From the NCBI GenBank assembly GCA_041483895.1, contig JBGPGO010000007.1:131378-195377 (forward strand): DNA of 64,000 bases, written 5' to 3'. Position numbers and translations under genes: made by a program. The notes under the pieces were generated by a model that had not been told where the DNA came from, did no database searches, and saw only the letters and a program-made list of their open reading frames with translations. This document shows positions 16,296 through 33,883 of the stretch, piece after piece. This DNA comes from Fimbriimonadia bacterium. Its GTDB lineage: Bacteria; Armatimonadota; Fimbriimonadia; Fimbriimonadales; JABRVX01. Every line of letters starts with the position of its first letter. Position 1 is the first letter of the stretch.

Positions 16296-17330
16296 TTAGC
16301 TTGTATAAAGTTCGGGACGGCTGGTCGAGCCCCGCACGTCAATCGCGAGCGGGAAGACGACCTGCAAGTGGTCTACGGGTTGTTTATGAACAATCGAGGC
16401 CAGCAGGATGGTTGCCCGCCTCGCCATATCTCGAATCGGTTGACGAATACTGGTTAGTTTCGGGTCGACCCGATCGCATGAATCCGTGCTGTCAAACCCC
16501 ACGATTGACACGTCCTTGGGAACCGCCAGACCCAGTTCGCACAGTAGCCGCAGGCAGTTGAACGCCACGTCATCGGACCAGACAAAAAGCGCCGTCGGTC
16601 GGTCCTTGCGGTTCATCAAATCGATGAGCGCCCCAGTGTTCGAAGAAGGGGTTTCCATCGTGACAACCATCTCCGGATCGAACGGCAACGACGCCTCCTC
16701 AAGGGCGCTTCGAAAGCCATGCAGGCGATCCGTGGAACTCCGCGACCCGTGCGGTCCCCGAATCATACCAAGCCGCTTGTGCCCAAGTGAAATCAAGTGT
16801 TCGGCCGCCAGCCGGCCGCCAGAATAGTTATCGGCATCCACAAAGGGTACGTCCGGATCGTCGGTCCGCGTGAAAAACAGAACGCTCGGAAACTTGCGGT
16901 TCAACAGGTCCAGCTGTGTTTGATCGTCGACGTCTCGCAGAACCAAAGCGCCGTCCACACGGCCATCGGAGATCACATCGGCTTCGCTCCCCGCGCCGTT
17001 TACGGCTTTCGTGTGGAGCAGCAGGTCCATCCCAGTCTCCACGCATCCCTCGCACACGCCGTGCATCGCCTCGGCAATGAAATTCGACCACGATGAAAAG
17101 TAGGTGGCATACTGAAAAACGACGGCGATCGTATCGGTCTTCTGTTTCAAAAGCATCTTTGCCAACGCGTTGGGCCGATAGCCTAACTCGCGGGCGACCT
17201 CAATCACCCGTTCTTCCGTGCCGGCACTGATGCGCGCCTCTGTTGCCCTGCCGTTCAGGACGTAGCTGACGGTGACCTTGCTGACCCCGGCAAGGCGTGC
17301 CACATCCTCAATCGTATTTCTCTTCTCCAT
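16296..17330 (-). CDS. LacI-family transcriptional regulator
   Basis: N-terminal HTH TIEDVARLAGVSKVTVSYVLNG plus a periplasmic-binding-protein-like sugar-sensor domain. Size is 344 aa. Confidence 0.9.
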   Translation of the reverse strand: MEKRNTIEDVARLAGVSKVTVSYVLNGRATEARISAGTEERVIEVARELGYRPNALAKMLLKQKTDTIAVVFQYATYFSSWSNFIAEAMHGVCEGCVETGMDLLLHTKAVNGAGSEADVISDGRVDGALVLRDVDDQTQLDLLNRKFPSVLFFTRTDDPDVPFVDADNYSGGRLAAEHLISLGHKRLGMIRGPHGSRSSTDRLHGFRSALEEASLPFDPEMVVTMETPSSNTGALIDLMNRKDRPTALFVWSDDVAFNCLRLLCELGLAVPKDVSIVGFDSTDSCDRVDPKLTSIRQPIRDMARRATILLASIVHKQPVDHLQVVFPLAIDVRGSTSRPELYTS

Positions 17331-17499: not shown

Positions 17500-17700
17500 A
17501 TGAGAAAAGAAATTCCAGCGAAAACGATGGCAGTCATCGGCGTTTTGATCGTCGCCGTCTTGGGAATCCTCGTTTGGCAAGTTTTCTTCAAGTCGGGGCC
17601 TACGAGTCCAGCAGAGATCGGAATCGGCGCGCCTGCGCTTCCGGGTGGCGGCACCGTCTCTCCCGGCAGTGGCAGCAACCCGAACGGGTCTGGAAAGTAA
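17500..17700 (+). CDS. Small single-pass membrane protein (66 aa), Gly/Pro/Ser-rich tail
   Basis: ATG preceded by GGAG. One TM helix (MAVIGVLIVAVLGILVWQVFF). Sits upstream of the MoxR operon. No family recognised. Confidence 0.4.
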   Translation: MRKEIPAKTMAVIGVLIVAVLGILVWQVFFKSGPTSPAEIGIGAPALPGGGTVSPGSGSNPNGSGK

Positions 17701-17854
17701 AGCGAGTCAACCGGCCGTTACTATGGGCTTGGCCCTAGGCTCCTTGGCGGAGAGTCGTTCAATCGAATCTCCCATTCGGTTGGCACGGCACTTAACTTCG
17801 TTCGTCAAAGGTATTGTAGAATGCCGGGTATTGGTTGTAATCAGGGGAGGGGAC

Positions 17855-18868
17855 ATGGACGAGCAGGCTCACTTGGCGCAGTTAGACCAGATTCGACAGC
17901 AGTATGAGACGCTGCTCGAGGAAGTTCACAAAGTTATCATTGGCCAAGACGATGTTGTCCGCCATCTGGTGAGCGCGCTCTTTGCGAAGGGACATTGTAT
18001 CGTCATTGGCGTGCCCGGCCTTGCGAAAACCCTTCTTGTGAAAACCCTGGCCCAATGCCTTTCCTGGGACTTCAAACGCATTCAGTTCACTCCCGACCTG
18101 ATGCCCAGCGACATCATCGGCACGGAGATTCTGGACACCGACCCGGCAAGCGGCGGACGCTCTCTTCGTTTCGTCCGGGGTCCGGTCTTCGCCAATGTCA
18201 TCCTCGCTGACGAAATCAACCGCACTCCGCCGAAAACTCAAAGCGCCCTTCTGGAGGCGATGCAGGAGTATGCCGTTACCGTTGCGGGCCACACGATGCC
18301 GCTCGACCCGCCGTTCTTCGTCGTCGCCACGCAAAACCCGATCGAGCAGGAAGGCACCTATCCATTGCCCGAAGCCCAGCTTGACCGGTTTATGTACAGC
18401 CTCTACATCGATTACCCCACCGCCGAGGAAGAGGAAGCGATCGCCGAAAGCACGACGACGAACGAAGTGCCGGAAGCAGGGACCGTGTTCACCAAGGAGG
18501 AACTGCTGAACGCCCAGCGGTTGGTGCGTGAGATTCCCGTCTCGCCGCACGTAGTCAAATACGCCGTCTCCCTCGCCCGTGCCAGCCGGCCCGGTTCTCC
18601 GGAAGCGCCATCGATGATCAAGAAATACTCGCAATGGGGCGCCGGTCCGCGCGCCGCCCAATACCTGCTGCTGGGAGGCAAGGCATTTGCCGTCATGCAA
18701 GGCAAACCAACGCCGACCGCCGCCGACCTGCGCCAGATCGCCCCGCTGGTTCTGCGCCACCGAATCATCCCCAACTACGCCGCGGTTGCCGACGGAATCA
18801 CCGCCGCACACCTCGTCCAGGACCTTTTGCACAATGTGCGGGAGCCCGCGTATGCAACCGAAGGATGA
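17855..18868 (+). CDS. moxR: MoxR-family AAA+ ATPase
   Basis: ATG 17855 follows AGGGGAGGGGA. Walker A GVPGLAKT and Walker B VILADEINR. ...GQDDVVRHLVSALFAKGHCIVIG... is typical of MoxR (AAA_3). The upstream 70 codons of ORF 17645 have no support. Confidence 0.9.
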   Translation: MDEQAHLAQLDQIRQQYETLLEEVHKVIIGQDDVVRHLVSALFAKGHCIVIGVPGLAKTLLVKTLAQCLSWDFKRIQFTPDLMPSDIIGTEILDTDPASGGRSLRFVRGPVFANVILADEINRTPPKTQSALLEAMQEYAVTVAGHTMPLDPPFFVVATQNPIEQEGTYPLPEAQLDRFMYSLYIDYPTAEEEEAIAESTTTNEVPEAGTVFTKEELLNAQRLVREIPVSPHVVKYAVSLARASRPGSPEAPSMIKKYSQWGAGPRAAQYLLLGGKAFAVMQGKPTPTAADLRQIAPLVLRHRIIPNYAAVADGITAAHLVQDLLHNVREPAYATEG

Positions 18869-19787
18869 GATCCCCTCGACTTCGCTCGGGGCAGGTGGCA
18901 CTGGGCGGCGCTTCCTCCAACCCGCGGACCTAAAGCGTCTGCAAAATTTGCAGTTCGCCGCGAAATTGATCGTCGAGGGCTATTTCCAGGGCAAGCACCG
19001 CTCGCCCTATTACGACTTCTCTTCAGAATTCGCCGACTATCGCCCCTACACGCCGGGCGACGAAATCCGTGCCATTGATTGGAGGGCCTTCGCGCGCACG
19101 GATCGCTTCTATATCAAGCTGTATCGCAAAGAGACCGACATGAACTGCTGCGTCCTCGTGGACAAGAGCAATTCCATGGCATTTCGCGGCAGCTCGCCCC
19201 TTACGAAGCTCGAATATGCCAATTTCCTCGCGGCCGCCCTGTCCTATTTAATGATAATGCAGGGGGACAAGACCGGCCTGGCGCTCTGCGACGACAAAAT
19301 GTCCGGCTTCGTGCCCGCCGGCGGCACCATGCGAACGCTCCAGCAAATGCTGGTGACATTGGAGCGCGCCACCCCCGGCGGCCCGACGAAGCTCGCGGAA
19401 GGCCTTCGCGTGCTGTTCAGCCTGCTGAAGCGCAAGGGTCTTCTTGTCGTGATCTCCGATTTCCTGGACGACACGAGCGAGGTCTTTTCCGCCCTCAGCA
19501 TGTTCGCGCATAAGGGCTTTGCTATCTTGCTCTTTCACGTCCTGACCGATGACGAAATGAATCTTCCGCTGGTCAGCAACGCGTTGTTTCAAGACATGGA
19601 ATCGCCCGCGTCCGTTTCCGTGGAGCCGGAACCGATCCGTGCGGCCTATCAGGAGGAGATGCGCGGGTTCATTGCGGAGATGGAATCGAACGCGAAGGCA
19701 CGCAGAATGCACTACCAGCTTGCCACGACAGCCGAACCGTATACCAGAGCTCTCGAAGCCTATCTGACGGCAAGGGCCAGGCTATAA
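18852..19787 (+). CDS. DUF58-family protein (vWA-like, MoxR partner)
   Basis: FADYRPYTPGDEIRAIDWRAFARTDRFYIKLYRKE is the DUF58 signature. MIDAS-like VLVDKSNSM. Overlaps the moxR 3' end by 17 nt. Confidence 0.85.
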   Translation: MQPKDEIPSTSLGAGGTGRRFLQPADLKRLQNLQFAAKLIVEGYFQGKHRSPYYDFSSEFADYRPYTPGDEIRAIDWRAFARTDRFYIKLYRKETDMNCCVLVDKSNSMAFRGSSPLTKLEYANFLAAALSYLMIMQGDKTGLALCDDKMSGFVPAGGTMRTLQQMLVTLERATPGGPTKLAEGLRVLFSLLKRKGLLVVISDFLDDTSEVFSALSMFAHKGFAILLFHVLTDDEMNLPLVSNALFQDMESPASVSVEPEPIRAAYQEEMRGFIAEMESNAKARRMHYQLATTAEPYTRALEAYLTARARL

Positions 19788-21917
19788 ATGTTCTCGTTGC
19801 TAAACGCCGGCCTGTGGCCTTGGATTGCGGCAGCGTCCGTGCCGCTGGTGATCCATTTGTTGACCCGCCGTACTCGCAGACGGATGGACCTGCCGACGGT
19901 GAAGTTTCTGCAGCGCACGCTCGCCCATCAGAGCCGCATCTTTCGCTGGCGGCATTGGCTGCTGCTTGCCCTTCGCACGCTGGCGATTGCCGCGCTGGTT
20001 GTGGCCTTCCTGCGCCCAGCCTTGCTGAGTCCGTTGGCGGCGCAGGGTTTCGAGCGATCCGGCGTGGTTATCGTCCTCGATGTGAGCGAGAGCATGGCCT
20101 ACTCGTCCGGTGGTGTGAGCTCGCTGGCGAAAGCGAAAAGCCAGGCGCTCAGCGTTCTGCAAGACTTGCGGGCCGGCGACCATGCGAACATAGTTTTCTG
20201 CGGCGCTCAGCCAACATCCGCCCAGCCGTCGCCAACCACCGACATCGCCGCTCTTCAGACGAGCGTTCGTTCCATGGAAGCGACCGACGAACGGGCAGAC
20301 GCGGCGTCGGCAATCAATGTGGCGGTCGAGCAGTTGGGAAAGACAAATAGTCGGGCCAAGCGGCTCTATATCATCTCCGATTTCCAGCGAACCAACTGGT
20401 CGGATGTCAAGTTTGACGCGGTGCCCGCCGATGCGAGGGTGCTGTTCGTCAGCGTGGATTCGACCGCGCGCCAAAATGCCGGATTGACCGGTCTCAAAAT
20501 CCGCCCCTCAACTCCGTGCGTCGGCGAGCCGCTGACGGTGCAGGCCGAGGTATTCAACTCTTCCTCCTCGCCCCGCACGGTGCCGGTCACATTCACCCTA
20601 TCGGATCCCTCGGCTCCGCTCGGGACAGGCAGCCGCAACTTCTCGGACAGCGTTCAGCTCGCCCCCTATTCCAGCGGGAACGTTAGCCTGCCGCTCACCT
20701 TCGACGCGCCGCAGCGGATGGAGTGCACAGCCACGCTGCCGCAGGACAATCTGGCCGGCGATAACACACGGCGACTCGTCATCGATCTTGGCCGCATGGC
20801 AACCGTTTTGCTGATCACCGACGAGGACACCAACGCCACCACGAGCGCGGCCTACTATCTGGTTCGTGCCCTCCATCCGGACCCCGGTTCGGTCGCCGGC
20901 TTCCGGGTCTTGCCCGTCCATTCGAACGCGGTCAATAACCCGATGCTGAAGGCGGCGGACGCCGTGATGGTTTGCAATGCGCCGAGCATGCCGCCCGTCC
21001 AACTGGAGGTCCTCGCGAAGTATGCGGTCTCCGGCGGCAGCCTGGTCTGGTTTCTGTACGGCGACCGTGTGGCCGAGCAGATCAAGGGGCTGAGCGCCCA
21101 GTTGCCCAAGTCGGAACCCGCGCCGCTACAGGTGGAGGGGATCGCGAACGTCCAAAGCCGGGCCAAGGGATTTGTGACGCTATCCGAGGCGCGATACGAG
21201 AGCAAGCTGCTGAAGGCGTTTCGCGATCTCACTGCGTCAGATCTCGGCCATATCAAGTTCTACAAATTCAGCCTGACGAGCGAGGTGCAGCCGCGCGCTG
21301 AATTGCTGCTGAAATTTGAGGACGGGACGGCGGCGGCGGTCCGGTGCGGGGAGGGCAGCGGCAACCTGTTGCTTCTCAACATGTCCCCCGCGCCGTCCTG
21401 GAGCGACCTTGCAAGGCAACAGATATTTTTGCCGCTCATGCACGAATTTCTTAAAGGAATCCTCGCCAAAGATTCCGGTGCTTTGGAAGCGTTTCCCGGC
21501 GGCACGGCCTCCACCACGATTGAGCCGACATCCGCCACTCTTACGTGCGTCGATCCGCTTGGACAGGTAGTGCCGGTAACCATGGACAAGACGACCGGCT
21601 CCATCGTGATCGATCCGGCGCGTCGGGCGGGTATCTACCACTTGACCGCGGGCGCGCAAGAGGTGGCCGCTCTCGCCGTCAACCCGCACCCGGACGAGTC
21701 CGATCTCCGCTCAATTGATCCGCGCGAACTTGAGTCGCAGCGGGAGAAGTCCCGCTCCTATCTCACCGGCTCGACAGGCAATGACCCGGACGTCAGCGAT
21801 CTCGACAAGGGCACGCCGATCTGGCACTATCTGCTGATATTCGCGATTGCAGCACTGTTCGCGGAGCAGGCCGTTGGCCGCGTGGGCGTGCGATCGCGCA
21901 AGGGGAAGACGGCATGA
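19788..21917 (+). CDS. BatA-N-terminal-domain + vWA membrane protein
   Basis: N-terminus LWPWIAAASVPLVIHLLTRRTRRRMDLPTVKFL resembles the aerotolerance regulator N-terminal domain. MIDAS VIVLDVSESM. C-terminal TM helix. The ATG abuts the previous TAA. Confidence 0.8.
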   Translation: MFSLLNAGLWPWIAAASVPLVIHLLTRRTRRRMDLPTVKFLQRTLAHQSRIFRWRHWLLLALRTLAIAALVVAFLRPALLSPLAAQGFERSGVVIVLDVSESMAYSSGGVSSLAKAKSQALSVLQDLRAGDHANIVFCGAQPTSAQPSPTTDIAALQTSVRSMEATDERADAASAINVAVEQLGKTNSRAKRLYIISDFQRTNWSDVKFDAVPADARVLFVSVDSTARQNAGLTGLKIRPSTPCVGEPLTVQAEVFNSSSSPRTVPVTFTLSDPSAPLGTGSRNFSDSVQLAPYSSGNVSLPLTFDAPQRMECTATLPQDNLAGDNTRRLVIDLGRMATVLLITDEDTNATTSAAYYLVRALHPDPGSVAGFRVLPVHSNAVNNPMLKAADAVMVCNAPSMPPVQLEVLAKYAVSGGSLVWFLYGDRVAEQIKGLSAQLPKSEPAPLQVEGIANVQSRAKGFVTLSEARYESKLLKAFRDLTASDLGHIKFYKFSLTSEVQPRAELLLKFEDGTAAAVRCGEGSGNLLLLNMSPAPSWSDLARQQIFLPLMHEFLKGILAKDSGALEAFPGGTASTTIEPTSATLTCVDPLGQVVPVTMDKTTGSIVIDPARRAGIYHLTAGAQEVAALAVNPHPDESDLRSIDPRELESQREKSRSYLTGSTGNDPDVSDLDKGTPIWHYLLIFAIAALFAEQAVGRVGVRSRKGKTA

Positions 21918-24124
21918 GCTTCTCCCCCATCTTCCCCCTTCTGCAGGTGATCGTATTTGGTTTGATCGCTGTCGGCATTGCGTTTGCGCTGTATCGAAGG
22001 GATGAAAGAGTCGGCCCGCGCTCGCTCGTACTCGCCGTTCTGCGCGCGGTCGCGGTAGCGGGGATCTTCATGCTGCTGCTGAACCCAATTCTCTCGCGCC
22101 CGGAAGACCAGCCGACCGGCAAGCCGCCGCTGATGGTGCTGGTGGATACGTCTCACAGCATGGCGGTCAAGGATGTCGGGACTGGCAGTCGCTTCGATGC
22201 GGCAAAGCGTCAGGTTTTCGACAACCAGCCCCTCCTCCGCGCCCTGTCGCGCAAATACACGCCGATCTTTTTCCGATTGGATTCCGATGCCACGAGACAA
22301 GACCCGACTGCGCTGGATAAGCTGGAGAATCCCGATGGTACGCGGACGTGCATCGGCGAGGGCATCGCGCATGCCCTCAGCGCCGCGGGGGATTCGCGCA
22401 TGGGTGGCATCTTGCTGCTTTCCGACGGGCGCAACAACGGCGACCTCAGCCCCGCCGATATCGCCAAGCAGGCCAAAATGCGAAAGTTTCCGGTCTTCAC
22501 CGTCTGCCTCGGTCAAAAGTCGAACACGAAAGACGTTGGCGTCGCCGTCCGACGATCGCAGGTGTACGCCGCCCCGGATCAGGAGGTGACGATTGACGCG
22601 GACATCACCTGCAGCGGATACGGGTCTGCGCAGGCTCAGGTCCAGCTCCTCCGGGACGGCAAGCTGATGGCAAATCGGACGGTGGGGATCAGCGACAGCG
22701 CCCATTCCAACGTCAGCTTTCCCGTCAAGGAGTCGCAAAAGGGTCTTTATCGGTATTCCATTGTTGTCCAGAAGCTGCCGGGCGAGGTGATTGCCAGCAA
22801 CAACAGGGCCTCCGCCCTTGTCAACGTGCTCAAAGCCAACACCCGAGTCCTGGTCCTCGAAGGCAGGCCGACCTGGGACGCCAAGTTCCTGATCCAGGCG
22901 CTCCACTCCGATCCGAGCGTGCAATTGGATGCGATCTTCAAGCTGACCGACACTCGGTTCTTTGCGGTGCGCGCCGCCGAGACCGGCGAGACTACCTCCG
23001 CAAGCATGAAGATGCCCACCTCCCCCGCCGAGCTTGCGAAATATGACGTGATCATCATCGGCAAGGGGTTTGAGGAGTTCTTTACCGACGCGACCGCCGA
23101 TTCGATCCGCACCTACGTTACGGAAAGCGGCGGCAATCTAATTTTGTTCCGGGGTAAGGCGGAGGATCGTTCGACGACCCTCGCATCGTTGGAGCCCGTG
23201 ACATGGAGCGACGATCAGGTGCGCGATTTCCGCATGAAGCTGACCGCCGACGGACTCACGAATCCGGCCTTCACATTCAATGGCGAGGGCGATTCTGAAA
23301 CCATTGTCCAGGCCCTCCCGACGCTGATCTCCGCGACAAGGGTGGAGAAGGAGAAGGCGCTCTCGGTGGTCCTTGCCCGCGCAAACGGCGTTGCGAACGC
23401 CGGCCAGCCGAACAAAGAGATGGCGGTGCTGGCGTATCAGGACTTCGGCACGGGTCTCGTGGTTTCACTCATCGGCCAGGGGCTCTGGCGATGGGCTCTG
23501 CTACCGCCGGAGCTGGCCAAGTACTCGAAATGTTATAGCGATTTTTGGACCCAGCTCATTCGGTGGCTGGTCAGTCGCTCCGACTTCCTGCCGGGCCAAA
23601 ACGTCTCGCTGAAAACCGACCACCTGAACTATTCCCCCGGCGAGGCCGTCAACCTGATGGCCTTCGTCCGCGGAAAGAAGCCGGACTCGCTGGCGCCTGT
23701 CTCGATCACGGGCCCGGACGGCCAGCCGGTGAAGGTGTCGCTCAGCAAGGCGGGCGGCAAACAGGCGGATTTCCTCGGAGTTTTCCGGCCAAAGGCGCCG
23801 GGCGACTACATCGCGACGCTGGCGACGCAGACCCGGAGCGGGGGCCAGATCACCGTCCCGTTCGCGGTGTTTGAGCGGCGCGAAGAGGACCTGAATACGT
23901 CGGCCGATCCGGGGCTGATGCGACAGATCGCGATGGCCGGCGGCGGCGAAGAGCTGACGCTTGACCAATTGAACGGTCTGCCGGCCAAATTAAAGGAAGC
24001 GCAGGCCCTGCTTGTGACGAAAACGGAGCCGCAAAGCGCCTGGGATCGATGGTGGGTGCTGGCAATCATCCTTGGTATCCTCAGCGCGGAATGGATCCTG
24101 CGGCGAAGAATGGGTATGGTGTAA
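21914..24124 (+). CDS. Membrane vWA-domain protein with GATase1-like C-terminal region (BatB-like)
   Basis: Two N-terminal TM helices, MIDAS LMVLVDTSHSM, a VLVLEGRPTWDAKFL block and a C-terminal TM helix (WWVLAIILGILSAEWIL). ATGA overlap with the upstream gene. Confidence 0.75.
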   Translation: MSFSPIFPLLQVIVFGLIAVGIAFALYRRDERVGPRSLVLAVLRAVAVAGIFMLLLNPILSRPEDQPTGKPPLMVLVDTSHSMAVKDVGTGSRFDAAKRQVFDNQPLLRALSRKYTPIFFRLDSDATRQDPTALDKLENPDGTRTCIGEGIAHALSAAGDSRMGGILLLSDGRNNGDLSPADIAKQAKMRKFPVFTVCLGQKSNTKDVGVAVRRSQVYAAPDQEVTIDADITCSGYGSAQAQVQLLRDGKLMANRTVGISDSAHSNVSFPVKESQKGLYRYSIVVQKLPGEVIASNNRASALVNVLKANTRVLVLEGRPTWDAKFLIQALHSDPSVQLDAIFKLTDTRFFAVRAAETGETTSASMKMPTSPAELAKYDVIIIGKGFEEFFTDATADSIRTYVTESGGNLILFRGKAEDRSTTLASLEPVTWSDDQVRDFRMKLTADGLTNPAFTFNGEGDSETIVQALPTLISATRVEKEKALSVVLARANGVANAGQPNKEMAVLAYQDFGTGLVVSLIGQGLWRWALLPPELAKYSKCYSDFWTQLIRWLVSRSDFLPGQNVSLKTDHLNYSPGEAVNLMAFVRGKKPDSLAPVSITGPDGQPVKVSLSKAGGKQADFLGVFRPKAPGDYIATLATQTRSGGQITVPFAVFERREEDLNTSADPGLMRQIAMAGGGEELTLDQLNGLPAKLKEAQALLVTKTEPQSAWDRWWVLAIILGILSAEWILRRRMGMV

Positions 24125-24128
24125 TGCA

Positions 24129-26969
24129 ATGATCCGATCGCACGTTTTCCCTGTGACCAACCTCAGAGCGGCCCTCCTGAAGACCGCCGGCCGCATCCGC
24201 GAGACCACCGTCCGCGAGGCATCCTACGGACTCGCTTGGCGCTGGCTTGCCATGCTCGGCGGCCTGTTCCTTCTGGACCTGATGTTCGCATTGCCGGTCT
24301 GGCTGCGATGGGCGGGGCTGCTCGGGCAGGGATGGTTCGTGTATCGTGGCGTGCAGGAGATTCGCCGGTCGGGGCATCGTGCGAAATTGGAAGATCAGCG
24401 GGCGGCCCGCGTCGTCGAGGAGAGCCATCCGGAGCTGGATAACGCGCTGATCAATGCGGTGCAATTTGAAGACAAGATCGACGCCGCTCCTGAAGCGCAG
24501 GCCCCGTTGATGCGGCGCGAAATTGAACGGGCGGAGTCGGCGATTGCCGGCGTTTCGCTCGAGGAGACGGTGTCACGGGACGGGGAGCGGCGGTCCTTCC
24601 GAAAGATGGCGGGTTTCGCGGGCGTGTGGCTGCTTGTGGCGGTTCTGTTCCCTGGGGCGTTCTTTGCCGTCATGCCGCGTCTGTTCGCGCCATGGCTGGA
24701 CGATATCACTCCGCCGTTTTCATTGACCAAATTCGACGTGATGCCGCACGGCGCGTCGGTCCGATTCGGCGACCCGCTCACTTTGAACATCTCGGTCTCC
24801 GGCCCCATTCCGGACAACATCGTCTTGATGACCCGGACGAAGGATACCGATTGGCGCAGCGTGGCGCTTGAAAGCACCGAAGCAGGCCATTACGCGGTCA
24901 CGCTCGATTCGCTGCGAGAGGACACATGGTACTGCGCGCAGGGTGGCGGCGCGCGCAGCGCCCGATGGCTGGCGAAAGTGATCCTCCCGCCTACCGCCGA
25001 ATCCATCACGGCCTCCTACGTCTATCCGCGCTACGTCAACCGCCAATCCAACACGGAAACCGTCGGGGATGCGGGAATTCACGCTCTGTTCAACACGGAT
25101 GTTCGGCTGAAGATCAGCGCCAATCGCGACCTCAGCGGCGGCACGCTGACCCTGACCTTTGCGGACGGAGAGACCGAGCGCGTGGACGTGCTGGTCGATC
25201 CGAAAAGTCATCGCCAGGCGATCACAACGTTCCGCCTCACCCGCTCCGGCAAATTCACGTTGATGCTGGCCGGCGACGACAACCAGGTCAATCCGGAGGC
25301 GGCGAAGGGCAAGCTGACGGTCGAGCACGATCAGCATCCGACGGTTTGGATCGACGCGCCCGGCCAAGAGCTTCTCGTCACGCCGGAAATGAAACTCGCC
25401 ATCGGCGTGGAGGCCGAGGACGATGTCGGGGTTCAGACGCTGGAAATCCATCGCACGATCAACGACCTTGCGGACACGCAGGACATCCTCCACAATGGCC
25501 CGCCGCTCAAGAAGGTCGGCAGCCGGCTGGTGATGGACCTGGCCGATCTCGGCGTTCGGCCCGGAGACCAGATCACCTACTATGCCGCCGCCTACGACAA
25601 CGATCCGGGGCGGCCGAACTACGCCGAAACCGATCCGTACAAGCTGAAGGTGGTATCGAAAGAGGAGTATATCAAGGCGCTCAAGGATCAGCAGGACGCG
25701 GAGCGACTGAGCAAAGACATGCAGGACATTGTCGAAGCGACCCAGGAACTGGCCAAGCAGCAGCGCGAGCTCGCGGAAAAGATGCAGAAAATCAAGAACG
25801 AATTGGCCAAGAAGCCCGGCGATGCAGCCTTGCAAAAGCAGCTTCAGCAGGCACAGGCGGAACAGAAGGAATTGCAACAGGCCGCGCAAGAATTCGCCGA
25901 CCAGCTCAGCGCCTACGCCAAGTCGCCGAGCAACTCCGATTTGGAGGCCGCGTTGAAAAAGAAGATCGGCGAGATGTCTCAGAAGATCGGGCAGGCGGCG
26001 CAAGGGCCGATGCAGCAGGCACAGAGCGGGACCCCGGGCGAGGCCGCGGATGCCGCCAAGAAGGCCGCCGAAATGCTGAGCCAGGTGAACGGCCAGATGC
26101 AGCAGCAGGTGGCCAAGAGCATCCAGAATTTGGAAAAGGTCGCGCCGCTCTTTAATGACGTCGAGCGATTCAAAGAGCTTTTGACTCGCCAAGGACAACT
26201 CGTTCTGCAGGCGCGCCAATTCCAGGATCGCGCCGCCACCGATGCGACGGCCAAGGCGCGCATGGATCATATCGCCACGGAGCAGGAGCAGATTCGACAA
26301 GAGCTTCAACAGCTCCAACAGGATTTCCGCGCCCATGCCACCGCCGCGCAGAAAGATTTCCCCAAAGCCGCCGCGTCCGCGCGAAAGATCGCCGATGAGA
26401 TCGGCCGCCGGCAGATCGCCAATCTGATGCAGGCAGGGACAGACAAGTTCCACGAATACCAAGGACCGGAAGGATTCCAAAACGCCCAGCGCGCCCTCCA
26501 GGAGATGGAGGCGATGATGAGCAATTGCCAAGCATGTCAGAGCAATTGTGAAGGGGAGCTCGACATCGCGCTGGGCCGGAGCCTCGGCCAATCCGGCCTC
26601 GGCGACAGCCTCTCGCAGTGCATGGGAAACAGTCCCGGCACGGGGCAAGGGGGTGGCAACGCATCCGGCCGCGGCGGGATGGGTGGCGGGTCGGTGGGGC
26701 AGACCGGTGGCGGCTATACGATGCGCGGTCCGATGGCATATGTTCCGTCCGTTCGCAGCTTAGGCGGCGCGGCGGGCGTCAAGCGCGCAAAGAATCCAAA
26801 CGGGATGGCGCGAACGCCGGCGGAGCTTGCCCCCGACCATGTCGAGACCATGGGCTCCAATGTCAAGACGCCGCCAAAGGCATCCGACGCCGCGAATCGC
26901 GCATACCCGCCGGAATACCGCAAGATGATCAACGACTACTTCATCTCGGTCTCAAAGGAAAAGCGATGA
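24129..26969 (+). CDS. Large membrane-anchored protein, DUF4175-like, with long Q/A/K/E-rich coiled coil and Gly-rich tail
   Basis: The ATG at 24129 lies 4 nt after the previous stop. N-terminal TM pair (LAWRWLAMLGGLFLLDLMFALPVWL). The central beta-rich region is followed by ~250 aa of heptad-like Q/A/E/K sequence, then a GGGNASGRGGMGGGSVGQTGGG tail. Confidence 0.7.
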   Translation: MIRSHVFPVTNLRAALLKTAGRIRETTVREASYGLAWRWLAMLGGLFLLDLMFALPVWLRWAGLLGQGWFVYRGVQEIRRSGHRAKLEDQRAARVVEESHPELDNALINAVQFEDKIDAAPEAQAPLMRREIERAESAIAGVSLEETVSRDGERRSFRKMAGFAGVWLLVAVLFPGAFFAVMPRLFAPWLDDITPPFSLTKFDVMPHGASVRFGDPLTLNISVSGPIPDNIVLMTRTKDTDWRSVALESTEAGHYAVTLDSLREDTWYCAQGGGARSARWLAKVILPPTAESITASYVYPRYVNRQSNTETVGDAGIHALFNTDVRLKISANRDLSGGTLTLTFADGETERVDVLVDPKSHRQAITTFRLTRSGKFTLMLAGDDNQVNPEAAKGKLTVEHDQHPTVWIDAPGQELLVTPEMKLAIGVEAEDDVGVQTLEIHRTINDLADTQDILHNGPPLKKVGSRLVMDLADLGVRPGDQITYYAAAYDNDPGRPNYAETDPYKLKVVSKEEYIKALKDQQDAERLSKDMQDIVEATQELAKQQRELAEKMQKIKNELAKKPGDAALQKQLQQAQAEQKELQQAAQEFADQLSAYAKSPSNSDLEAALKKKIGEMSQKIGQAAQGPMQQAQSGTPGEAADAAKKAAEMLSQVNGQMQQQVAKSIQNLEKVAPLFNDVERFKELLTRQGQLVLQARQFQDRAATDATAKARMDHIATEQEQIRQELQQLQQDFRAHATAAQKDFPKAAASARKIADEIGRRQIANLMQAGTDKFHEYQGPEGFQNAQRALQEMEAMMSNCQACQSNCEGELDIALGRSLGQSGLGDSLSQCMGNSPGTGQGGGNASGRGGMGGGSVGQTGGGYTMRGPMAYVPSVRSLGGAAGVKRAKNPNGMARTPAELAPDHVETMGSNVKTPPKASDAANRAYPPEYRKMINDYFISVSKEKR

Positions 26970-27637
26970 AAAAGACTCAGCGACTTCTCGCCCTTGCCGT
27001 GTTCCTTCCCCTCCTCGTGATGGGGCATCCGGGACCGGGCGCCGTTCAGGAGGGCGACAAAGTTAAATGCGCCAACCTGACCTACGCGATGAACAAGACA
27101 TCGGTCTGCTTCAGCGATCGCTTCCTGCGCCGCCTGCAGCTTGAGACCAACATCCTGACGGAGCCGCGATTTATGAAGGCCCGCCTCGGAACCAATGAGG
27201 TGTTCGATTATCCGTTTTGCATCATGACGGGCGAGGGGGGCTTTTCGCTAACGCCGAAGGAGAGGATCAACCTCAAGTATTACGTCACGCATGGCGGATT
27301 CTTGCTGGCATCCGCGGGATGCTCCGATCCCGAATGGACCAAGTCGTTTCGCGGCGAGATGGCCCGGATCTTCCCGGATCTCAAACTTAAATCGATTCCG
27401 CTCACTCACCCGATCTATCACACCGTCTACGATATCAAATCCACCCAAACGATCCATGACCACCGCGGCGCGGTCTTGGAAGGCCTGTTTTACAACAACA
27501 AGATCGTCGTGCTCTTTTCCCAGGACGGCCTGAACGACACTTCCCATGCGGAGAACTGCTGCTGCTGTGGCGGTGATGAGCTGGATCAGGCGGAGTATTT
27601 CAACGTCAACATTCTCGGCTATGCGCTTCTCCACTAA
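26966..27637 (+). CDS. Secreted DUF4159-like protein
   Basis: ATGA overlap with the upstream stop. Signal peptide MKKTQRLLALAVFLPLLVMG. YPFCIMTGEGGFSLTPKERINLKYYVTHGGFLLASAGC and ...NILGYALL resemble DUF4159. The longer ORF from 26618 overlaps the previous gene out of frame. Confidence 0.7.
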   Translation: MKKTQRLLALAVFLPLLVMGHPGPGAVQEGDKVKCANLTYAMNKTSVCFSDRFLRRLQLETNILTEPRFMKARLGTNEVFDYPFCIMTGEGGFSLTPKERINLKYYVTHGGFLLASAGCSDPEWTKSFRGEMARIFPDLKLKSIPLTHPIYHTVYDIKSTQTIHDHRGAVLEGLFYNNKIVVLFSQDGLNDTSHAENCCCCGGDELDQAEYFNVNILGYALLH

Positions 27638-28958
27638 GCTCGGAATCGCTTTGTGCTTTCCGCTATCGGCCCTTGTCACTGGTATGGTATTGGAGGGCTG
27701 CGGATCCGGGATGCCGGAGCGGTTGACTCTGTTCGTGTCGGGAGATAGCAGAGGGTATTTAGAGCCGTGCGGCTGCCGGATCGATCAGGCCGGTGGACTG
27801 CCCGGCCGAGCAGTCGCGATCGAGAAGGCAGGGGTGGGGGAGAAGCTGGTGGTGGACGTTGGAAACCTGACATCTGGCAGCCGATCCTACGAGCTGCTCA
27901 AGATGCGCTACCTCTTGGAAGGAATGAAGGCGATCGGATACGACGCGGTCAACCTCGGCAAGAATGAGGCGCAACTCGATCGGGTGACGCTGAGCGACAT
28001 GATGTCCCATTCTGGGCTGCCGTTTTTGTCGGCGAATGTATTGGATAAGAAGGATAAGACCCCGATTGCCGACCGCTATCGGATCATCCGCCGCGGTGCG
28101 CTGCGGGTCGGCGTCACTGGAGTCACGGAATGTGAGGCGCGCGACGCCGGGCCGGGCATCGAGGTCCGGCCGCCGATTGAAGCGCTGGCCGATGTCATCC
28201 CCGACCTGAAGGGCAAGTGCGACTTCGTCGTCGTTCTTGCATTCGTTGACGAAGAAACCATCAAACAGATCGCGGAAAAGTTTCATGAAGTGGACTGCAT
28301 TCTCGGCGGCGACGTCCCGCAATCTTCGGGAACGGCCCAAACGATCAACCGCGCGATCGCGTTCAACGTCGTCGATCGCGGAAAGGTTTTGGGGCAGATC
28401 GATCTGGTGCGCAAGGGGGCCGGCTACTCGGTCGCATCATCCAAGGGGATAAGGATCGCGGCGGACAAAGTGAAGGGACCGCCCGCGATCGCCGACCTTC
28501 TCGCGCGATATAAAAATGAATTGCGCGAGCGAAGATTTGAATTGGCAAGCGCCGAAGGCATGGAGCGGATCGCCGGGCAAGAGACCACATCGGACGAGTT
28601 CGTCGGAGCGCAGGCCTGCCAGAGCTGCCACGCTTCATCTCTGCACGTCCTGCTTGCCTCCGCCCATAGTCACGCGCTCCAAACCCTGAAAGAGAAAAAG
28701 AGCGAATTCGATCCGGAATGCCTTCGCTGCCACACCGTCGGTTACGGTCTTTCCAGCGGCTACATAGACGAAAAGACGACGCCGCAACTGGCCGGAGTGC
28801 AATGCGAGAACTGCCACGGAAGAGCGAAAGAGCATATCGCAAAAGGGGTGAAAACGACGCTGAAGCCGGTGACCCCCGCAACCTGTGTAAACTGCCATGA
28901 TGAGGAGAACAGCGCGAACTTCCGCTTTGCCACCTTCTGGCCGAAGATCGCGCACTGA
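27621..28958 (+). CDS. Lipoprotein: degenerate calcineurin-like/5'-nucleotidase-like domain + C-terminal tetrahaem cytochrome c
   Basis: Lipobox VLEGC. N-terminal LTLFVSGDSRGYLEPCGC, VVDVGNLTSG and AVNLGKNEAQL occupy the positions of the metallophosphatase motifs. The C-terminus has four CxxCH motifs (CQSCH, CLRCH, CENCH, CVNCH). Confidence 0.75.
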   Translation: MRFSTKLGIALCFPLSALVTGMVLEGCGSGMPERLTLFVSGDSRGYLEPCGCRIDQAGGLPGRAVAIEKAGVGEKLVVDVGNLTSGSRSYELLKMRYLLEGMKAIGYDAVNLGKNEAQLDRVTLSDMMSHSGLPFLSANVLDKKDKTPIADRYRIIRRGALRVGVTGVTECEARDAGPGIEVRPPIEALADVIPDLKGKCDFVVVLAFVDEETIKQIAEKFHEVDCILGGDVPQSSGTAQTINRAIAFNVVDRGKVLGQIDLVRKGAGYSVASSKGIRIAADKVKGPPAIADLLARYKNELRERRFELASAEGMERIAGQETTSDEFVGAQACQSCHASSLHVLLASAHSHALQTLKEKKSEFDPECLRCHTVGYGLSSGYIDEKTTPQLAGVQCENCHGRAKEHIAKGVKTTLKPVTPATCVNCHDEENSANFRFATFWPKIAH

Positions 28959-28963
28959 TAGCC

Positions 28964-29740
28964 ATGAAAATGATACCGATTCTGTGCCTGTTCCTTGCTG
29001 CCGCCGCTACAGCCCAAGTTCACTGGGAGACTAGCTACGACCACGCCAAGCAGGTCGCCGATAAAGCCGGAAAGCCGCTCCTTGTTGACTTCGCGGCGTC
29101 CTGGTGCGGGCCATGCCGGATGATGGACGAGCAGACCTTTAGCAACGCGAGCGTGAAATCTCTTCTCGCACGAACCATCTGCCTTCGGCTCGATGTGGAT
29201 CAGCGCCCGCCGCTTGCCGCAAAGTTTGGCGTCAACTCCATCCCGCGCGTGGTCTTGCTGTCCACAACAGGCGTAACGATCATGGATATTCAGGGTTTTC
29301 ATGACGCACAGTCGTTTTCGCAGGAGCTCAGTCGTGCGCTGGGAGTGAAAGCCGATGCCGCCGCACCGACTGAATCCCCCGAGGCAGTTAAGGTGCGTGA
29401 GGCGCTGCGAAATGGCACGTTCAGGCGACTGAAAGCCAGCGATCCGAAAACCGCCGCGCGCGGATTGGATCTGCTCGTGGCACAGCTTGGGGTCTTTGAG
29501 GAAGCGCAATATCGTCCGATCGCGTCGCTGATCAAGAACGCGGGCAGGGATGCCATCCCCGCGCTCATCGCCGGGATGGGGCATAAGCATCTGGCGGTCC
29601 GCGTCGGCGCTTATCGGACGCTGCAGTCAATCCTTGGCGCCAAACGTGGCCTGCCGGTTTACAACCCGTGGGCGTCTGCCAAAGTTCGGCAGCAGCAGCT
29701 CGCCGCGTGGCAAAAATGGTGGCAGAATCAGAGCGGCTAA
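28964..29740 (+). CDS. Secreted thioredoxin-fold protein (WCGPC) with HEAT-like C-terminal repeats
   Basis: Signal peptide MKMIPILCLFLAAAATAQ. Canonical thioredoxin active site (LVDFAASWCGPCRMMD). C-terminus includes AIPALIAGMGHKHLAVRVGAYRTL. Confidence 0.8.
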   Translation: MKMIPILCLFLAAAATAQVHWETSYDHAKQVADKAGKPLLVDFAASWCGPCRMMDEQTFSNASVKSLLARTICLRLDVDQRPPLAAKFGVNSIPRVVLLSTTGVTIMDIQGFHDAQSFSQELSRALGVKADAAAPTESPEAVKVREALRNGTFRRLKASDPKTAARGLDLLVAQLGVFEEAQYRPIASLIKNAGRDAIPALIAGMGHKHLAVRVGAYRTLQSILGAKRGLPVYNPWASAKVRQQQLAAWQKWWQNQSG

Positions 29741-32193
29741 TCCGCATAGCCGCCATATCGTTGACCCTGCCGCATCATGATCTTTGCGATTGCCATATCC
29801 GCCGTGCCGAACTTGGACGGCTTTGACGATTCCAGTTTCCATCCACCCGACTGCCGGAACTTCGCGAGGTACTCCTTGGGCATCTGGCCGCGCATATCGT
29901 ATGGTGAGTAGTATGTTTGACTCCCCGCCATGGGCCGCCAGGACCAGTAATGCACCTCCGCCAAAGAGCGCGAATCGTTGAACAGGACAGGTCCGTCCTT
30001 TGTGAGTATCGTCATGCTGTCGTTCGCGGGGCCGCCGAACTGCAAAACGCGCATCCCGCCCAGATCGTCGACCCGCTTCATGTAGTCCTCTTCCGTTACG
30101 CAGATGACGCGCGCCGCCGCTCCGTGAAACTCCTGCCAAGACGGCTTGTCCAGCACGACGATGATCGGATCGCGGGCTTTGTCACCACCGAAGCAGGCGG
30201 TGAACACGGTTTGGAGAATCTCGCGTCGGTCGGCGTTCCCAGCGAGCGGTTTCCCCTCCGTCCCGTTCGGGGCAGGCGCCAGCGGGTTGGCGTCCTTTCC
30301 GTCCGGCGCTCCGTCTCCATCCGTGTCTTTCTTGCTTGGGTCCGAACCGAGGCGCTTCTCGATCCGGTCCGGCAGCCCGTCGCCGTCCGTATCTTGCCGC
30401 ATCTCTTTCAGCGATAGTGTGATTGGGGTCCGCAGTCCTTTGCTGACCGACTGCTGCAGCTTGCTGGACTTGCGGTACAGTTCCGACCGCCGTTCCGCCA
30501 CTAGGCCGGAATCCCGCAGCGCCGCCTGCACACGCTGCAATTCTAGCGCGTCGGTCTTGTTGGGCGGCGATAGGACTACGCTGTCTCCGTCCACCGAAAT
30601 CGTGCAGCTGCCCGCCTTGGGTCCACCGCCGTAGCTTGAATAGTTGGATCCCGCGACGTACTGTTTGCCGGAGAACAGAAACTCTTGCCATTTGCCTTCC
30701 CGTTCCCGCGCGAGCCAGAGGTCCATCGCGTTCCCCAATCTGGGACAGACGACAACCACCCATCGGTTGCCGTCGGGCGAGAGATTGGAAGCGACGGGTG
30801 ATAGCGTGCCGGTTGGAGCGTCTTTTTCGCCATGAAAAACCGGTAGTTCGAATTCGCCGAGCGCGATCGTGCCGTTGGAGTCTGATTTGAAGGCGGTCAG
30901 ATTCCCGGTGGCAACGAGACCTTGCCGGGCGGTGGCGCGGGCCTCATCCGACGCGTCCGGGCTGGTGGCGATCTCTCCCAGCGCTTCCATTCCGGCTTTC
31001 GTGCCCTTCCTCGCGATCGCGGCGGCGCATTTGGAAAGGAGAAGCGCGGCCATGCCCTTTTGCTTGGGATTCGTTGTGTGCATTGCGCGTTTGGCGAAGT
31101 TCGCGATGGCTGCGTCCGCCGTGGGAAGGTCCATGATTTCCAGTACCCGCAAGGCAGCGTCGGCAGCCGGCGGCTTCGCAACGTCGAGAAATCCGGCAAG
31201 TGTGGGAACGGCGGCGTCTCCGAAAAGGCCGAGCGTCGAGAAGGCGTCGTTCGTCTCTTCTCGCAACGGCGGAATCTCGGTGGGAGATTCTACTTCCGCA
31301 CCGGGTGATGCGCCGGAGCGGCCCGCGTAGGACGAAAACCCTTCCGCAGAAATCTCCGGGCTCCCATCGATCTTCGCCTTTAGGGCGGCGATCTTGTCGG
31401 ATATCTTCTTCGGATCGGTCAGCCGCGATAGCTTCCAGGTCCCACTCTTGTAGGCCGCCTCCCCGCCGAAATAGTCCGCGAGCCGCACCATCAGCTCCTC
31501 CAGCCCAATGCGGTCCACCACTTTGAACTGCAGCATCGCGCGGTGGGTCTGCTGGCTATAGGCGCCGGAATAGGACCGACGGGAGGCTTCTCCATACATC
31601 AATGAAAGCACGCCGCCGCCTTCCTCCTCCGGCTTGGTTTCGCGGCCAAGGAGGTTTTGGCGAAGGGTCAGCAACTGTGGATCGGCATCAATTTTGATCT
31701 GCCAGGTTGAGCTCATGGCCGTCACCATCTGGCCGGCCGTCTCCGCGAAGATTCCAAATCCGGTGATCCCGTCCGGCGGCGACTTCTCTATCGCATGCAG
31801 CTCTTTTTCCGGGCCGAAGTACAGGAGAACATATTCCTTCCCCTGTTTCCAGGCAATCGGGGATTTCTTTGCGCACGTCTCTAGAACCTGCTGGACGGAC
31901 TGCGCTTGGGGCGTGTAGGCCGGCGTCCATTTAACTTCGTCGAGCGGCTTGGGCGCGAACACGACCCAGCAGCCGCCGGCCGATTGGGCCATCGCAGCCG
32001 CCAGAGACAGCGGCTCGCCCGTCCGGCCCGTGCCGACCCAGGACGAAATGTCGAACGGCCGGGACAGATCGGCGTCGTGCGAAACATTCTCTGCTGATGC
32101 ATTTGTGCCCGGCTTTGCCGCATGGCGGCAGGACGGCAACGCTAGCAGCAATACTATGATCGCAACCCAAAACTGGAATCGACTTCGCGACAT
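29737..32193 (-). CDS. Large secreted/lipoprotein with HEAT-like repeats and thrombospondin type-3-like Ca-binding repeats; function unknown
   Basis: Signal/lipobox-like MSRSRFQFWVAIIVLLLALPSC. DTDGDGLPDRIEKRLGSDPSKKDTDGDGAPDGKDANP is TSP3-like. Helical repeat region. RBS GAAGGAG upstream. 4-nt tail-to-tail overlap with the thioredoxin gene. Confidence 0.65.
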   Translation of the reverse strand: MSRSRFQFWVAIIVLLLALPSCRHAAKPGTNASAENVSHDADLSRPFDISSWVGTGRTGEPLSLAAAMAQSAGGCWVVFAPKPLDEVKWTPAYTPQAQSVQQVLETCAKKSPIAWKQGKEYVLLYFGPEKELHAIEKSPPDGITGFGIFAETAGQMVTAMSSTWQIKIDADPQLLTLRQNLLGRETKPEEEGGGVLSLMYGEASRRSYSGAYSQQTHRAMLQFKVVDRIGLEELMVRLADYFGGEAAYKSGTWKLSRLTDPKKISDKIAALKAKIDGSPEISAEGFSSYAGRSGASPGAEVESPTEIPPLREETNDAFSTLGLFGDAAVPTLAGFLDVAKPPAADAALRVLEIMDLPTADAAIANFAKRAMHTTNPKQKGMAALLLSKCAAAIARKGTKAGMEALGEIATSPDASDEARATARQGLVATGNLTAFKSDSNGTIALGEFELPVFHGEKDAPTGTLSPVASNLSPDGNRWVVVVCPRLGNAMDLWLAREREGKWQEFLFSGKQYVAGSNYSSYGGGPKAGSCTISVDGDSVVLSPPNKTDALELQRVQAALRDSGLVAERRSELYRKSSKLQQSVSKGLRTPITLSLKEMRQDTDGDGLPDRIEKRLGSDPSKKDTDGDGAPDGKDANPLAPAPNGTEGKPLAGNADRREILQTVFTACFGGDKARDPIIVVLDKPSWQEFHGAAARVICVTEEDYMKRVDDLGGMRVLQFGGPANDSMTILTKDGPVLFNDSRSLAEVHYWSWRPMAGSQTYYSPYDMRGQMPKEYLAKFRQSGGWKLESSKPSKFGTADMAIAKIMMRQGQRYGGYAD

Positions 32194-33882: not shown

Positions 33883-33883
33883 T

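Follow-up and report, generated by a model that had tools for sequence, protein, structure and literature searches.

Does a MoxR/vWA operon that runs directly into genes for a multihaem cytochrome and a periplasmic thioredoxin encode a single system and, if so, what might the redox proteins be doing there? The question is raised by a contig stretch of 64,000 nucleotides (nt) from a Fimbriimonadia bacterium (the window, to whose positions all coordinates refer), in which an earlier reading, made from the letters of the DNA alone (the sequence-only reading), had described such an operon. MoxR-DUF58-vWA ("Bat") operons are widespread, and PMC3557215 gives no established function for them; it records aerotolerance, virulence or envelope phenotypes of mutants, the partial rescue of a Bacteroides fragilis bat mutant by reducing agents, and the proposal of a periplasmic reducing role for Bat proteins. 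MoxR-family ATPases are described as acting in the manner of chaperones when particular protein complexes mature (PMC3893208). The locus is of a known kind, a Bat-like operon, and what is new in it is a conserved redox extension that is undescribed within the searchable literature. The genes from MoxR to the thioredoxin (17855-29740) probably constitute one functional unit.

Eight genes on the forward strand make up the block. They encode, in order, a predicted cytoplasmic MoxR AAA+ ATPase of 337 residues (17855-18868), a vWA-like DUF58 protein (18852-19787), a BatA_N-vWA protein (19788-21917), a second vWA protein with a transmembrane (TM) hairpin, termed vWA2 (21914-24124), a DUF4175-like, putatively membrane-anchored protein of 946 residues with a Q/A/E/K-rich central region (24129-26969), a secreted DUF4159 protein (26966-27637), a cytochrome that joins an UshA-fold pseudo-phosphatase to a tetrahaem domain (27621-28958) and a secreted thioredoxin of 258 residues with a HEAT-like C-terminal tail (28964-29740). 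The block is limited upstream by a divergent gene for a LacI-type regulator (16296-17330, reverse strand) and downstream by a convergent gene for a TSP3-repeat lipoprotein-like protein of 818 residues (29737-32193, reverse strand), which overlaps the thioredoxin stop codon by 4 nt. The closest protein matches bear the names Fimbriimonas, Fimbriimonadales and Armatimonadetes, which places the source bacterium in Armatimonadota.

Within these limits no gap exceeds 5 nt, and the genes otherwise overlap or abut. Overlaps of 17 nt join MoxR to DUF58 (18852/18868) and DUF4159 to the cytochrome (27621/27637), DUF58 and BatA_N-vWA abut at 19787/19788, ATGA overlaps lie at 21914 and 26966, and gaps of 4 and 5 nt follow vWA2 (24124/24129) and the cytochrome (28958/28964). 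The MoxR start codon is preceded by the Shine-Dalgarno sequence GGGGAGGGG, and the DUF58 gene has an alternative ATG at 18834. The nine open reading frames (ORFs) of the sequence-only reading, that is, these eight and a small one upstream, were found where it had placed them, together with its seven tight junctions and all the motifs it had quoted (GVPGLAKT, ILADEINR, DKSNS, DVSES, DTSHS, four CxxCH and WCGPC). Internal promoters or terminators had been named there as evidence that would speak against a single unit. A consensus promoter scan gave no sigma-70-like site on the forward strand inside the block, and terminator-like sites occur in it at chance level (15 found versus 13.3 expected from shuffled sequence).

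To see how far this gene order is conserved, we scanned genomes, one for each species, with aligned cytochrome homologues as the query. The scan returned at least 80 loci, the matches listed being no more than 35% identical, and the nine window proteins were searched against the six-frame ORFs of the scanned loci; closer Armatimonadota relatives (L001, L165 and L002) were reached through protein look-ups. Among the matches listed, the cytochrome directly follows DUF4159 in 15 of 80 genome loci (L003-L082), and the full order MoxR-DUF58-BatA/vWA-vWA2-DUF4175-like-DUF4159 is present wherever the contig extends far enough upstream. These linked loci belong to Verrucomicrobiota (L003, L005, L006, L007 and L009) and Planctomycetota (L008, L010-L015, L017 and L020), with one more in an unclassified metagenome-assembled genome (MAG; L024). 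The same order occurs in the Armatimonadota loci L001, L165, L089 and L090; in L001 (55% identity) and in Fimbriimonas sp. L165 (65% identity) the block is flanked by other genes than in the window. In total, 16 genome loci (L001 and the 15 just mentioned) as well as L165 keep the order between flanking genes that are unrelated, and it recurs in 29 metagenome loci.

In a neighbour-joining tree of 102 cytochrome sequences, all 35 operon-linked cytochromes fall into a single clade of 39 leaves, the other four being two sequences whose contigs end too soon to show linkage and two leaves that stand for one and the same unlinked Armatimonadota gene (L002/P0075), while all 61 other unlinked paralogues lie outside it. 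Since the order recurs in three phyla and the linked cytochromes are monophyletic in this tree, the objection that the cytochrome and thioredoxin genes might lack synteny with the MoxR-vWA genes in related genomes, which the sequence-only reading had itself put forward, does not hold. Neither did searches of Pfam and NCBIfam assign any of the products to a characterised pathway.

The small ORF upstream of MoxR (17500-17700, forward strand, 66 residues) encodes one hydrophobic helix and a Gly/Pro/Ser-rich tail. It has no Pfam or NCBIfam match, a search of the genome and metagenome loci yielded no homologue of it, and in the Fimbriimonas locus L165 the 98 nt between an upstream peptidase gene and MoxR contain no called gene. 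In the window the distance from the small ORF to MoxR is 155 nt, and within it the sequence TGTAGAAT (17815-17822, forward strand), 33 nt 5' of the MoxR start, was read as a possible extended -10 promoter element; the consensus promoter scan did not pick it up, and the assignment is a weak one. An Rfam scan upstream of MoxR gave no leader or riboswitch match. The unit is therefore taken to start at MoxR: the small ORF lacks homologues in the searched loci and a counterpart in L165, and TGTAGAAT lies in between. The gene list of the sequence-only reading thus stands from MoxR through the thioredoxin, as a conserved block of eight genes, and loses its first member, the small TM ORF, which probably lies outside the conserved unit.

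The first genes had been likened to a Bat-type MoxR-vWA operon, and for the first four of them domain matches and the Walker and metal-ion-dependent adhesion site (MIDAS) motifs agree with this. MoxR matches AAA_3 (PF07726; 3e-62, 208.7 bits versus a cut-off of 27) and AAA_lid_2 (6e-14) in Pfam, its Walker A (GVPGLAKT) and Walker B (ILADEINR) motifs are intact, and Walker A is unchanged in 16 of 16 orthologues. The DUF58 protein matches PF01882 (1e-47, 162.5 bits versus 23.4) and VWA_2 (4e-8), carries the MIDAS motif DKSNS and has no hydrophobic segment. BatA_N-vWA, which combines a double-TM anchor with a long periplasmic region, a C-terminal TM segment and the MIDAS motif DVSES, matches PF07584 (BatA; 8e-14, 52.2 bits versus 25.9), VWA_2 (1e-12, 48.9 bits versus 27) and TIGR02226 (1e-13). 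In vWA2 (MIDAS motif DTSHS, C-terminal TM segment) the Pfam VWA and VWA_2 matches are weak, at about 2e-4 and under the cut-off; every syntenic locus nevertheless has a full-length orthologue (E values from 1e-75 to 1e-223). The MIDAS signature DxSxS is preserved in the orthologues of all three proteins. The fifth product reaches 16.5 bits against DUF4175 (PF13779; cut-off 27.3, E 0.0023, profile positions 218-338 only) and gives no match to TIGR02302, and orthologues of it are present in every syntenic locus; because its score falls under the cut-off, the cautious name "DUF4175-like", already used in the sequence-only reading, is the right one.

We infer the topology of these proteins from hydropathy and the distribution of K/R residues. 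The profiles suggest that MoxR and DUF58 are cytoplasmic, that BatA_N-vWA and vWA2 each begin with a TM hairpin whose cytoplasmic loop is basic, continue with a large domain on the outer side and end in a further TM segment, and that the DUF4175-like protein has a membrane anchor. Signal-peptide-like N-termini are present in DUF4159, the cytochrome and the thioredoxin. These three are also the only operon products with conserved cysteines; none of the cysteines of BatA_N-vWA, vWA2 or the DUF4175-like protein is conserved.

The likeness to Bat operons proper (B. fragilis, Leptospira, Borrelia, Francisella and Riemerella) lies in the same succession of a MoxR protein of the AAA_3 type, a DUF58 protein and BatA_N-anchored vWA proteins with MIDAS motifs. 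As in Bat-type operons, the DUF58 gene stands immediately 3' of MoxR, here with the 17-nt overlap. The canonical B. fragilis batA-E operon further includes TPR-containing proteins of the BatC/BatE type and a BatD-type protein. In contrast, neither BatC/BatE-type TPR proteins nor BatD were found among the nine products (Pfam, E<=0.01), and the locus is thus Bat-like rather than a canonical batA-E operon. In their place it has the DUF4175-like protein, the Cys-rich secreted DUF4159 protein, the thioredoxin-HEAT protein and a tetrahaem lipoprotein with a CGC motif, none of which is described as a Bat component in the searchable literature. Full-text searches gave no account of a MoxR/vWA operon with a CCCC-bearing DUF4159, an UshA-like cytochrome and a thioredoxin-HEAT protein, in line with the remark of the sequence-only reading that its cytochrome and thioredoxin extension was not part of the Bat description; DUF4159 itself is named in a single searchable paper, the Pfam database article.

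The DUF4159 protein (PF13709, 4e-26, 92.1 bits versus a Pfam cut-off of 25.9) supplies the first of the cysteine sites. Its C-terminal part reads N-C-C-C-C-G-G-D-E, with the four cysteines at residues 198-201 (nt 27557-27568), and C48 and C119 are likewise invariant. The CCCC run is kept in all operon orthologues and in 120 of 120 close homologues. An AlphaFold2 (AF2) model (predicted local distance difference test score, pLDDT, 85.8) has a GATase1-like fold, in which the CCCC lies in a lower-confidence coil between the last strand and the C-terminal helix. The only strong match in the PDB is 4i66 (Hoch_4089; Foldseek E 1.2e-11, TM-scores 0.66/0.73), which reads LACVPDG where the operon form has CCCC and lacks an equivalent of C119. 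Myxococcota relatives of 4i66 adjoin a GATase1_like protein, with neither MoxR nor thioredoxin there. The Hoch_4089 type was considered as a control, that is, as a DUF4159 without CCCC in a MoxR operon that lacks a thioredoxin, and was set aside, its context being wholly different; it agrees with the hypothesis without being a stringent test of it.

When 1.84 billion representatives were searched in full with HMMER, 189 DUF4159 clusters reached E<=1e-30. Among the best 150 of these 189 clusters, CCCC is present in 72, comprising 69 short proteins and three long ones. Most of 43 longer DUF4159 proteins (400-900 residues; P0413-P0510) carry GC...CxxC at the loop where the operon form has CCCC. 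DUF4159 proteins at large may therefore have cysteines at this site, with CCCC as the operon-linked form. The one gene that a search with DUF4159 brought up in a plasmid collection is unrelated; it stands by itself within a resistance region.

The second cysteine site belongs to the cytochrome, which the sequence-only reading had described as a lipoprotein with a degenerate metallophosphatase fold and four CxxCH motifs. Fold and profile matches bear this description out. In the AF2 model (pLDDT 85.9), residues 1 to about 305 match the N-domains of 5'-nucleotidase, UshA, CD73 and SoxB (Foldseek 3e-21 to 1e-17; 3ive, 1ush, CD73 and 2wdc, with 4uwq also among the fold matches), and profile matches reach 1e-23. 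In the alignment the dimetal and catalytic positions of the 5'-nucleotidases are substituted: DxH is replaced by DSR, GD by GN, GNHE by GKNE, GH by AF and GGH by GGD. The nucleotide-binding C-domain of those enzymes has been replaced by a tetrahaem domain, residues 327-445 of which match cytochrome c554 (PF13435, Cytochrome_C554, 3e-13, 51.2 bits versus 20.8; profile match to the c554 structure 1bvb, 6.5e-20), with CxxCH motifs at nt 28617, 28719, 28803 and 28884. The only further conserved histidines are H349, H405 and H445 (alignment A1), so one haem may lack a distal histidine, as in c554. The N-terminus, with the residues LEGC27, is consistent with a lipoprotein, and most homologues likewise have a cysteine after a hydrophobic stretch.

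Directly after the first, DxH-position motif stands the sequence P49-C50-G51-C52 (nt 27765-27776), which, like the four CxxCH motifs, does not vary among the 21 homologues in A1. The best NCBIfam match of the protein is NF041198 (UshA_like_PCGU; 4e-77, 259.8 bits versus a curated cut-off of 275, model positions 18-265), and operon-linked relatives score 199-247 bits. In two paralogues, L022 (at about 10019) and L059 (at about 5510), an in-frame TGA occupies the position of C52, and these are probably selenocysteine (Sec) forms. Both are unlinked paralogues, L022 from an Eisenbacteria MAG and L059 from an unclassified one. As a rule, a Cys/Sec pair points to residues of redox catalysis and not to ligands of a structural metal, and a pair of this kind at the former active site would argue for redox catalysis. 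The UshA-like family has been catalogued as a CxU selenoprotein family in ocean metagenomes (PMC2398784; PMC13188914). The operon clade shares with NF041198 the UshA-like N-domain, PCG[C/U] and the Sec/Cys alternation seen in the paralogues; it differs in being the Cys form, in its tie to the MoxR operon and in scoring under the curated cut-off.

Comparison with two better-known systems places the protein further. It shares the tetrahaem domain with four CxxCH motifs with c554 of Nitrosomonas europaea (1bvb/1ft5), and differs from it in that the domain is fused to a pseudo-phosphatase, predicted to be lipid-anchored and found outside a nitrification context. The parts list of the Sox system comprises SoxB, SoxXA, SoxYZ and the thioredoxin SoxW/S. 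By analogy only, the present block likewise combines an UshA-family fold, c-type haems, cysteines on a loop that is flexible and flanked by glycines, and a thioredoxin in the periplasm. Unlike in the Sox system, the dimanganese ligands are lost, and no SoxY, SoxZ or SoxA homologue was detected in Pfam and NCBIfam searches of the nine products.

The third site is the motif W47-C-G-P-C51 of the thioredoxin (nt 29102-29116). The protein had been read as a secreted WCGPC thioredoxin with a HEAT-like tail, and domain, motif and tail were all recovered. It matches Thioredoxin_7 (PF13899, 5e-17, 62.1 bits versus 27) and PF00085 (1e-13, 51.6 bits versus 23.5) in Pfam; against the TrxA equivalog model it scores 56.2 where 96.8 is needed, so that it is not a TrxA equivalog, and NCBIfam gives partial matches to TlpA, DsbE and the C-terminal domain of DsbD. 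Its tail can be aligned several times over with HEAT_2 proteins of 1100-1400 residues encoded at the same position in Planctomycetota, where the downstream proteins match HEAT_2 at 7e-33, with or without an N-terminal Thioredoxin_7 domain. The downstream partners range from about 250 to 1400 residues, and the window's protein is a short form.

The constancy of the two redox partners was compared in a metagenome scan with the CCCC-DUF4159 family, which gave 80 loci; counts refer to the 36 with at least 2.6 kb downstream and were made with iterated hidden Markov model searches. DUF4159 is followed by a gene of the thioredoxin/HEAT type only in 19 loci, by the cytochrome and then thioredoxin/HEAT in eight, by the cytochrome with no thioredoxin detected in three, and by neither in six, which are stand-alone DUF4159 genes. 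Thioredoxin-HEAT is thus the more constant partner (27 of 36 loci, versus 11 of 36 for the cytochrome), and the cytochrome occupies the position of an insertion between DUF4159 and thioredoxin-HEAT. The extension proposed in the sequence-only reading holds well for the thioredoxin-HEAT protein and less well for the cytochrome, found in about one third of the loci of this subtype. Among 58 adjacent partners, a thioredoxin-fold domain was present in 47 and a CxxC motif in 41. The thioredoxin domain stands next door in 25 of 25 cytochrome-containing loci versus 22 of 33 without a cytochrome (Fisher p=0.0013). The CxxC dipeptides vary (CGPC, CGWC, CAPC, CPWC, CPYC and others).

The cytochrome paralogues found apart from MoxR operons come mostly from Planctomycetota, with others from Acidobacteriota, Nitrospinota and further phyla. 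In 28 of these loci, among those listed, the cytochrome gene is preceded by a gene for a DUF1573/OS_HP2-like protein of about 400 residues with a conserved C-x-C-T motif; OS_HP2 is a UxC selenoprotein family (PMC2398784). Genes of the GT4 and Wzy_C types often stand upstream of the DUF1573/OS_HP2-like gene, which gives an envelope-glycan context; the paralogue block as such (L016-L082, for example L035 5632-11407) encodes a GT4 (WecA/MraY-like) transferase, a Wzy_C O-antigen-ligase-like protein, the DUF1573/OS_HP2-like protein and the cytochrome. A thioredoxin-type partner of the family NF041199 (Trx7/PDZ selenoprotein) was considered for the paralogues and rejected, the conserved neighbours being the DUF1573/OS_HP2-like, Wzy_C-type and GT4 genes. 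In both contexts, then, a protein with vicinal cysteines is encoded just 5' of the UshA-like cytochrome, which would support the CCCC loop of DUF4159 as a partner or client of the cytochrome.

Together these features suggest a trans-envelope, Bat-like MoxR/vWA complex with a dedicated periplasmic thiol-haem branch, a reading to which we would give an even chance. Cytoplasmic MoxR and DUF58 would act on BatA_N-vWA, vWA2 and the DUF4175-like protein, whose large domains would face the periplasm, and would drive the assembly or remodelling of the complex with ATP. On this scaffold, DUF4159 with its flexible CCCC loop, the CGC tetrahaem lipoprotein and the thioredoxin-HEAT protein would form the redox branch, the HEAT region docking the thioredoxin. 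The CGC pair, the equivalent of the Cys/Sec pair, would sit where the dimetal site used to be, in one protein with the four c-type haems; the haem domain would swap electrons with the periplasmic pool of cytochromes or quinols, and the CGC site would couple the one-electron steps of the haems to the two-electron chemistry of thiols and disulfides. The CGC and the CxxC of the thioredoxin would keep the cysteine cluster of DUF4159, which is the probable client or sensor, at a set redox state or take it through a redox cycle. This particular electron path, which links the haems, the CGC, the thioredoxin CxxC and the CCCC of DUF4159, is put forward tentatively, and the chances are somewhat against it.

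The DsbD/CcdA-TlpA/ResA/CcmG pathways likewise use a secreted thioredoxin-fold CxxC protein that serves a specific envelope client. In contrast to them, the block encodes neither DsbD nor CcdA, and the candidate electron partner is the haem/CGC lipoprotein; to our knowledge no such lipoprotein is a known donor for pathways of the DsbD/CcdA type. That it represents a new haem-to-thiol relay, linking the periplasmic cytochrome pool directly with the thioredoxin and the CCCC loop and bypassing DsbD/CcdA or DsbB, is an idea that we hold to be doubtful.

Several observations weigh against the proposed complex and its redox branch. Some two thirds of CCCC-DUF4159 operons lack the cytochrome, which is thus not essential to the core machine. 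The thioredoxin domain is missing from 11 of 58 downstream HEAT proteins and the CxxC from six more. The CxxC motifs range from the reducing type (CGPC) to the oxidising type (CPYC), so that electrons might flow either way. The orthologous cytochrome is an isolated single gene in the Armatimonadota locus L002 (51% identity), and DUF4159 stands singly, away from any MoxR operon, in the Armatimonadota loci L083, L084 and L093-L095 (56-61% identity); given these dispersed genes, operon linkage is common and not obligatory. The topology comes solely from hydropathy and K/R counts. Finally, a Leptospira bat deletion had no oxidative-stress phenotype (PMC3557215).

The cysteines could instead serve soft-metal handling, with CCCC and CGC binding a thiophilic metal (for instance Cu(I), or else Fe, Zn, Hg or As) that the machine of MoxR and vWA proteins would insert into a periplasmic target or remove from it; the thioredoxin would only keep the ligand cysteines reduced, and the haems would set the oxidation state of the metal. 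MoxR/vWA pairs such as CoxD/E, NorQ/D, CobS/T and BchI/D do insert metals, and runs of vicinal cysteines are typical soft-metal ligands, as in MerT and the C-terminus of MerA. The intact MIDAS motifs of all three vWA-type proteins fit such a role, as do the distant long DUF4159 proteins with GC...CxxC at the same loop and the maturation role ascribed to MoxR ATPases (PMC3893208). However, Sec takes the place of the second Cys of the CGC in paralogues, and such pairs are usually catalytic redox sites (PMC2398784). Moreover, no metal transporter, metallochaperone or metalloenzyme target lies in or beside the block in any locus examined, and we regard the metal explanation as unlikely. The cytochrome and thioredoxin might also be hitch-hikers, a self-contained oxidoreductase of the periplasm whose substrates could be, for example, peroxide, polysulfide or selenium compounds, or disulfides in general, and which shares only a promoter with the MoxR-vWA genes. 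Such independence would explain why paralogous cytochromes occur in other gene contexts, why the orthologue stands alone in L002 and why many operons have no cytochrome. It is difficult to reconcile with the linked cytochromes forming one clade at one exact position in three phyla, with the fusion of the thioredoxin domain to a HEAT protein that stays with the operon even without that domain, and with the invariant Cys-rich protein encoded immediately 5'; we consider it improbable.

Two simpler explanations fare worse. That the cytochrome is a working UshA-like 5'-nucleotidase or phosphoesterase, or a thiosulfohydrolase of the SoxB kind, with haems as an incidental addition, is suggested by its similarity in sequence and fold to the UshA, CD73 and SoxB N-domains, and it is very improbable: the metal-ligand and catalytic positions are substituted, the substrate-binding C-domain has given way to a cytochrome domain, and the SoxB model TIGR04486 scores 43.1 bits where 550 is required. 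The loss of the metal ligands largely refutes a working phosphatase or SoxB-type enzyme. Chance adjacency, or an artefact of ORF calling in which the spacing is accidental, has nothing in its favour beyond the general compactness of bacterial gene spacing; the same order in dozens of independent loci of three phyla refutes it and leaves it a negligible likelihood.

The proposed Bat-like complex may have a further, lineage-specific part. The convergent TSP3 gene downstream of the block (TSP3_bac, 6e-8, Pfam) has a full-length homologue (31% identity, E 5e-105) inside the L001 operon, between vWA2 and the DUF4175-like gene, and another in the same position in L090; none was detected in L165 or outside Armatimonadota. 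The TSP3 lipoprotein is probably an Armatimonadota-specific accessory component, and its position suggests that the gene is an extra, lineage-specific member that has been relocated in the window. The sequence-only reading had been silent on this association, as on the CCCC loop in DUF4159 and the cytochrome's CGC site. In eight other loci (L008, L010-L014, L017 and L024; for example L010 12385-13326), seven of them Planctomycetota and L024 the unclassified MAG, a conserved protein of about 315 residues with a weak SIMPL/DUF541 match is encoded 3' of thioredoxin-HEAT; it has no counterpart in the window.

Just past the TSP3 gene lies a leucine-biosynthesis-type cluster (32554-37480, forward strand; Iso_dh, HMGL-like/LeuA_dimer, Aconitase and Aconitase_C), an ordinary housekeeping context. 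Upstream, an 814-residue ORF (8686-11130, reverse strand) contains both SBP_bac_1 (residues 58-369) and a BPD_transp_1 permease domain (residues 585-806) and adjoins a gene for a GH94 phosphorylase (11108-13564); the two domains may be fused in an unusual way, or the ORF lister may have run two genes together. The sole Rfam match in the window is a 6S RNA (RF00013) at 63325-63498 on the forward strand (46.9 bits versus a gathering score of 46.4).

If the lipoprotein were indeed a new haem-to-thiol relay, at least one large class of Bat-like MoxR/vWA machines would be a periplasmic thiol-redox device, or a Cys-carrier device resembling Sox, and the old "aerotolerance / reducing power" phenotype of Bat operons would gain a molecular basis. 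For the UshA-like selenoprotein family, to which no function is assigned, the locus also supplies a first genomic setting. Its three cysteine-based parts, the CCCC loop of DUF4159, the CGC site of the tetrahaem lipoprotein and the CxxC of the thioredoxin-HEAT protein, offer concrete experimental targets for the question of what a Bat-like MoxR/vWA machine does.

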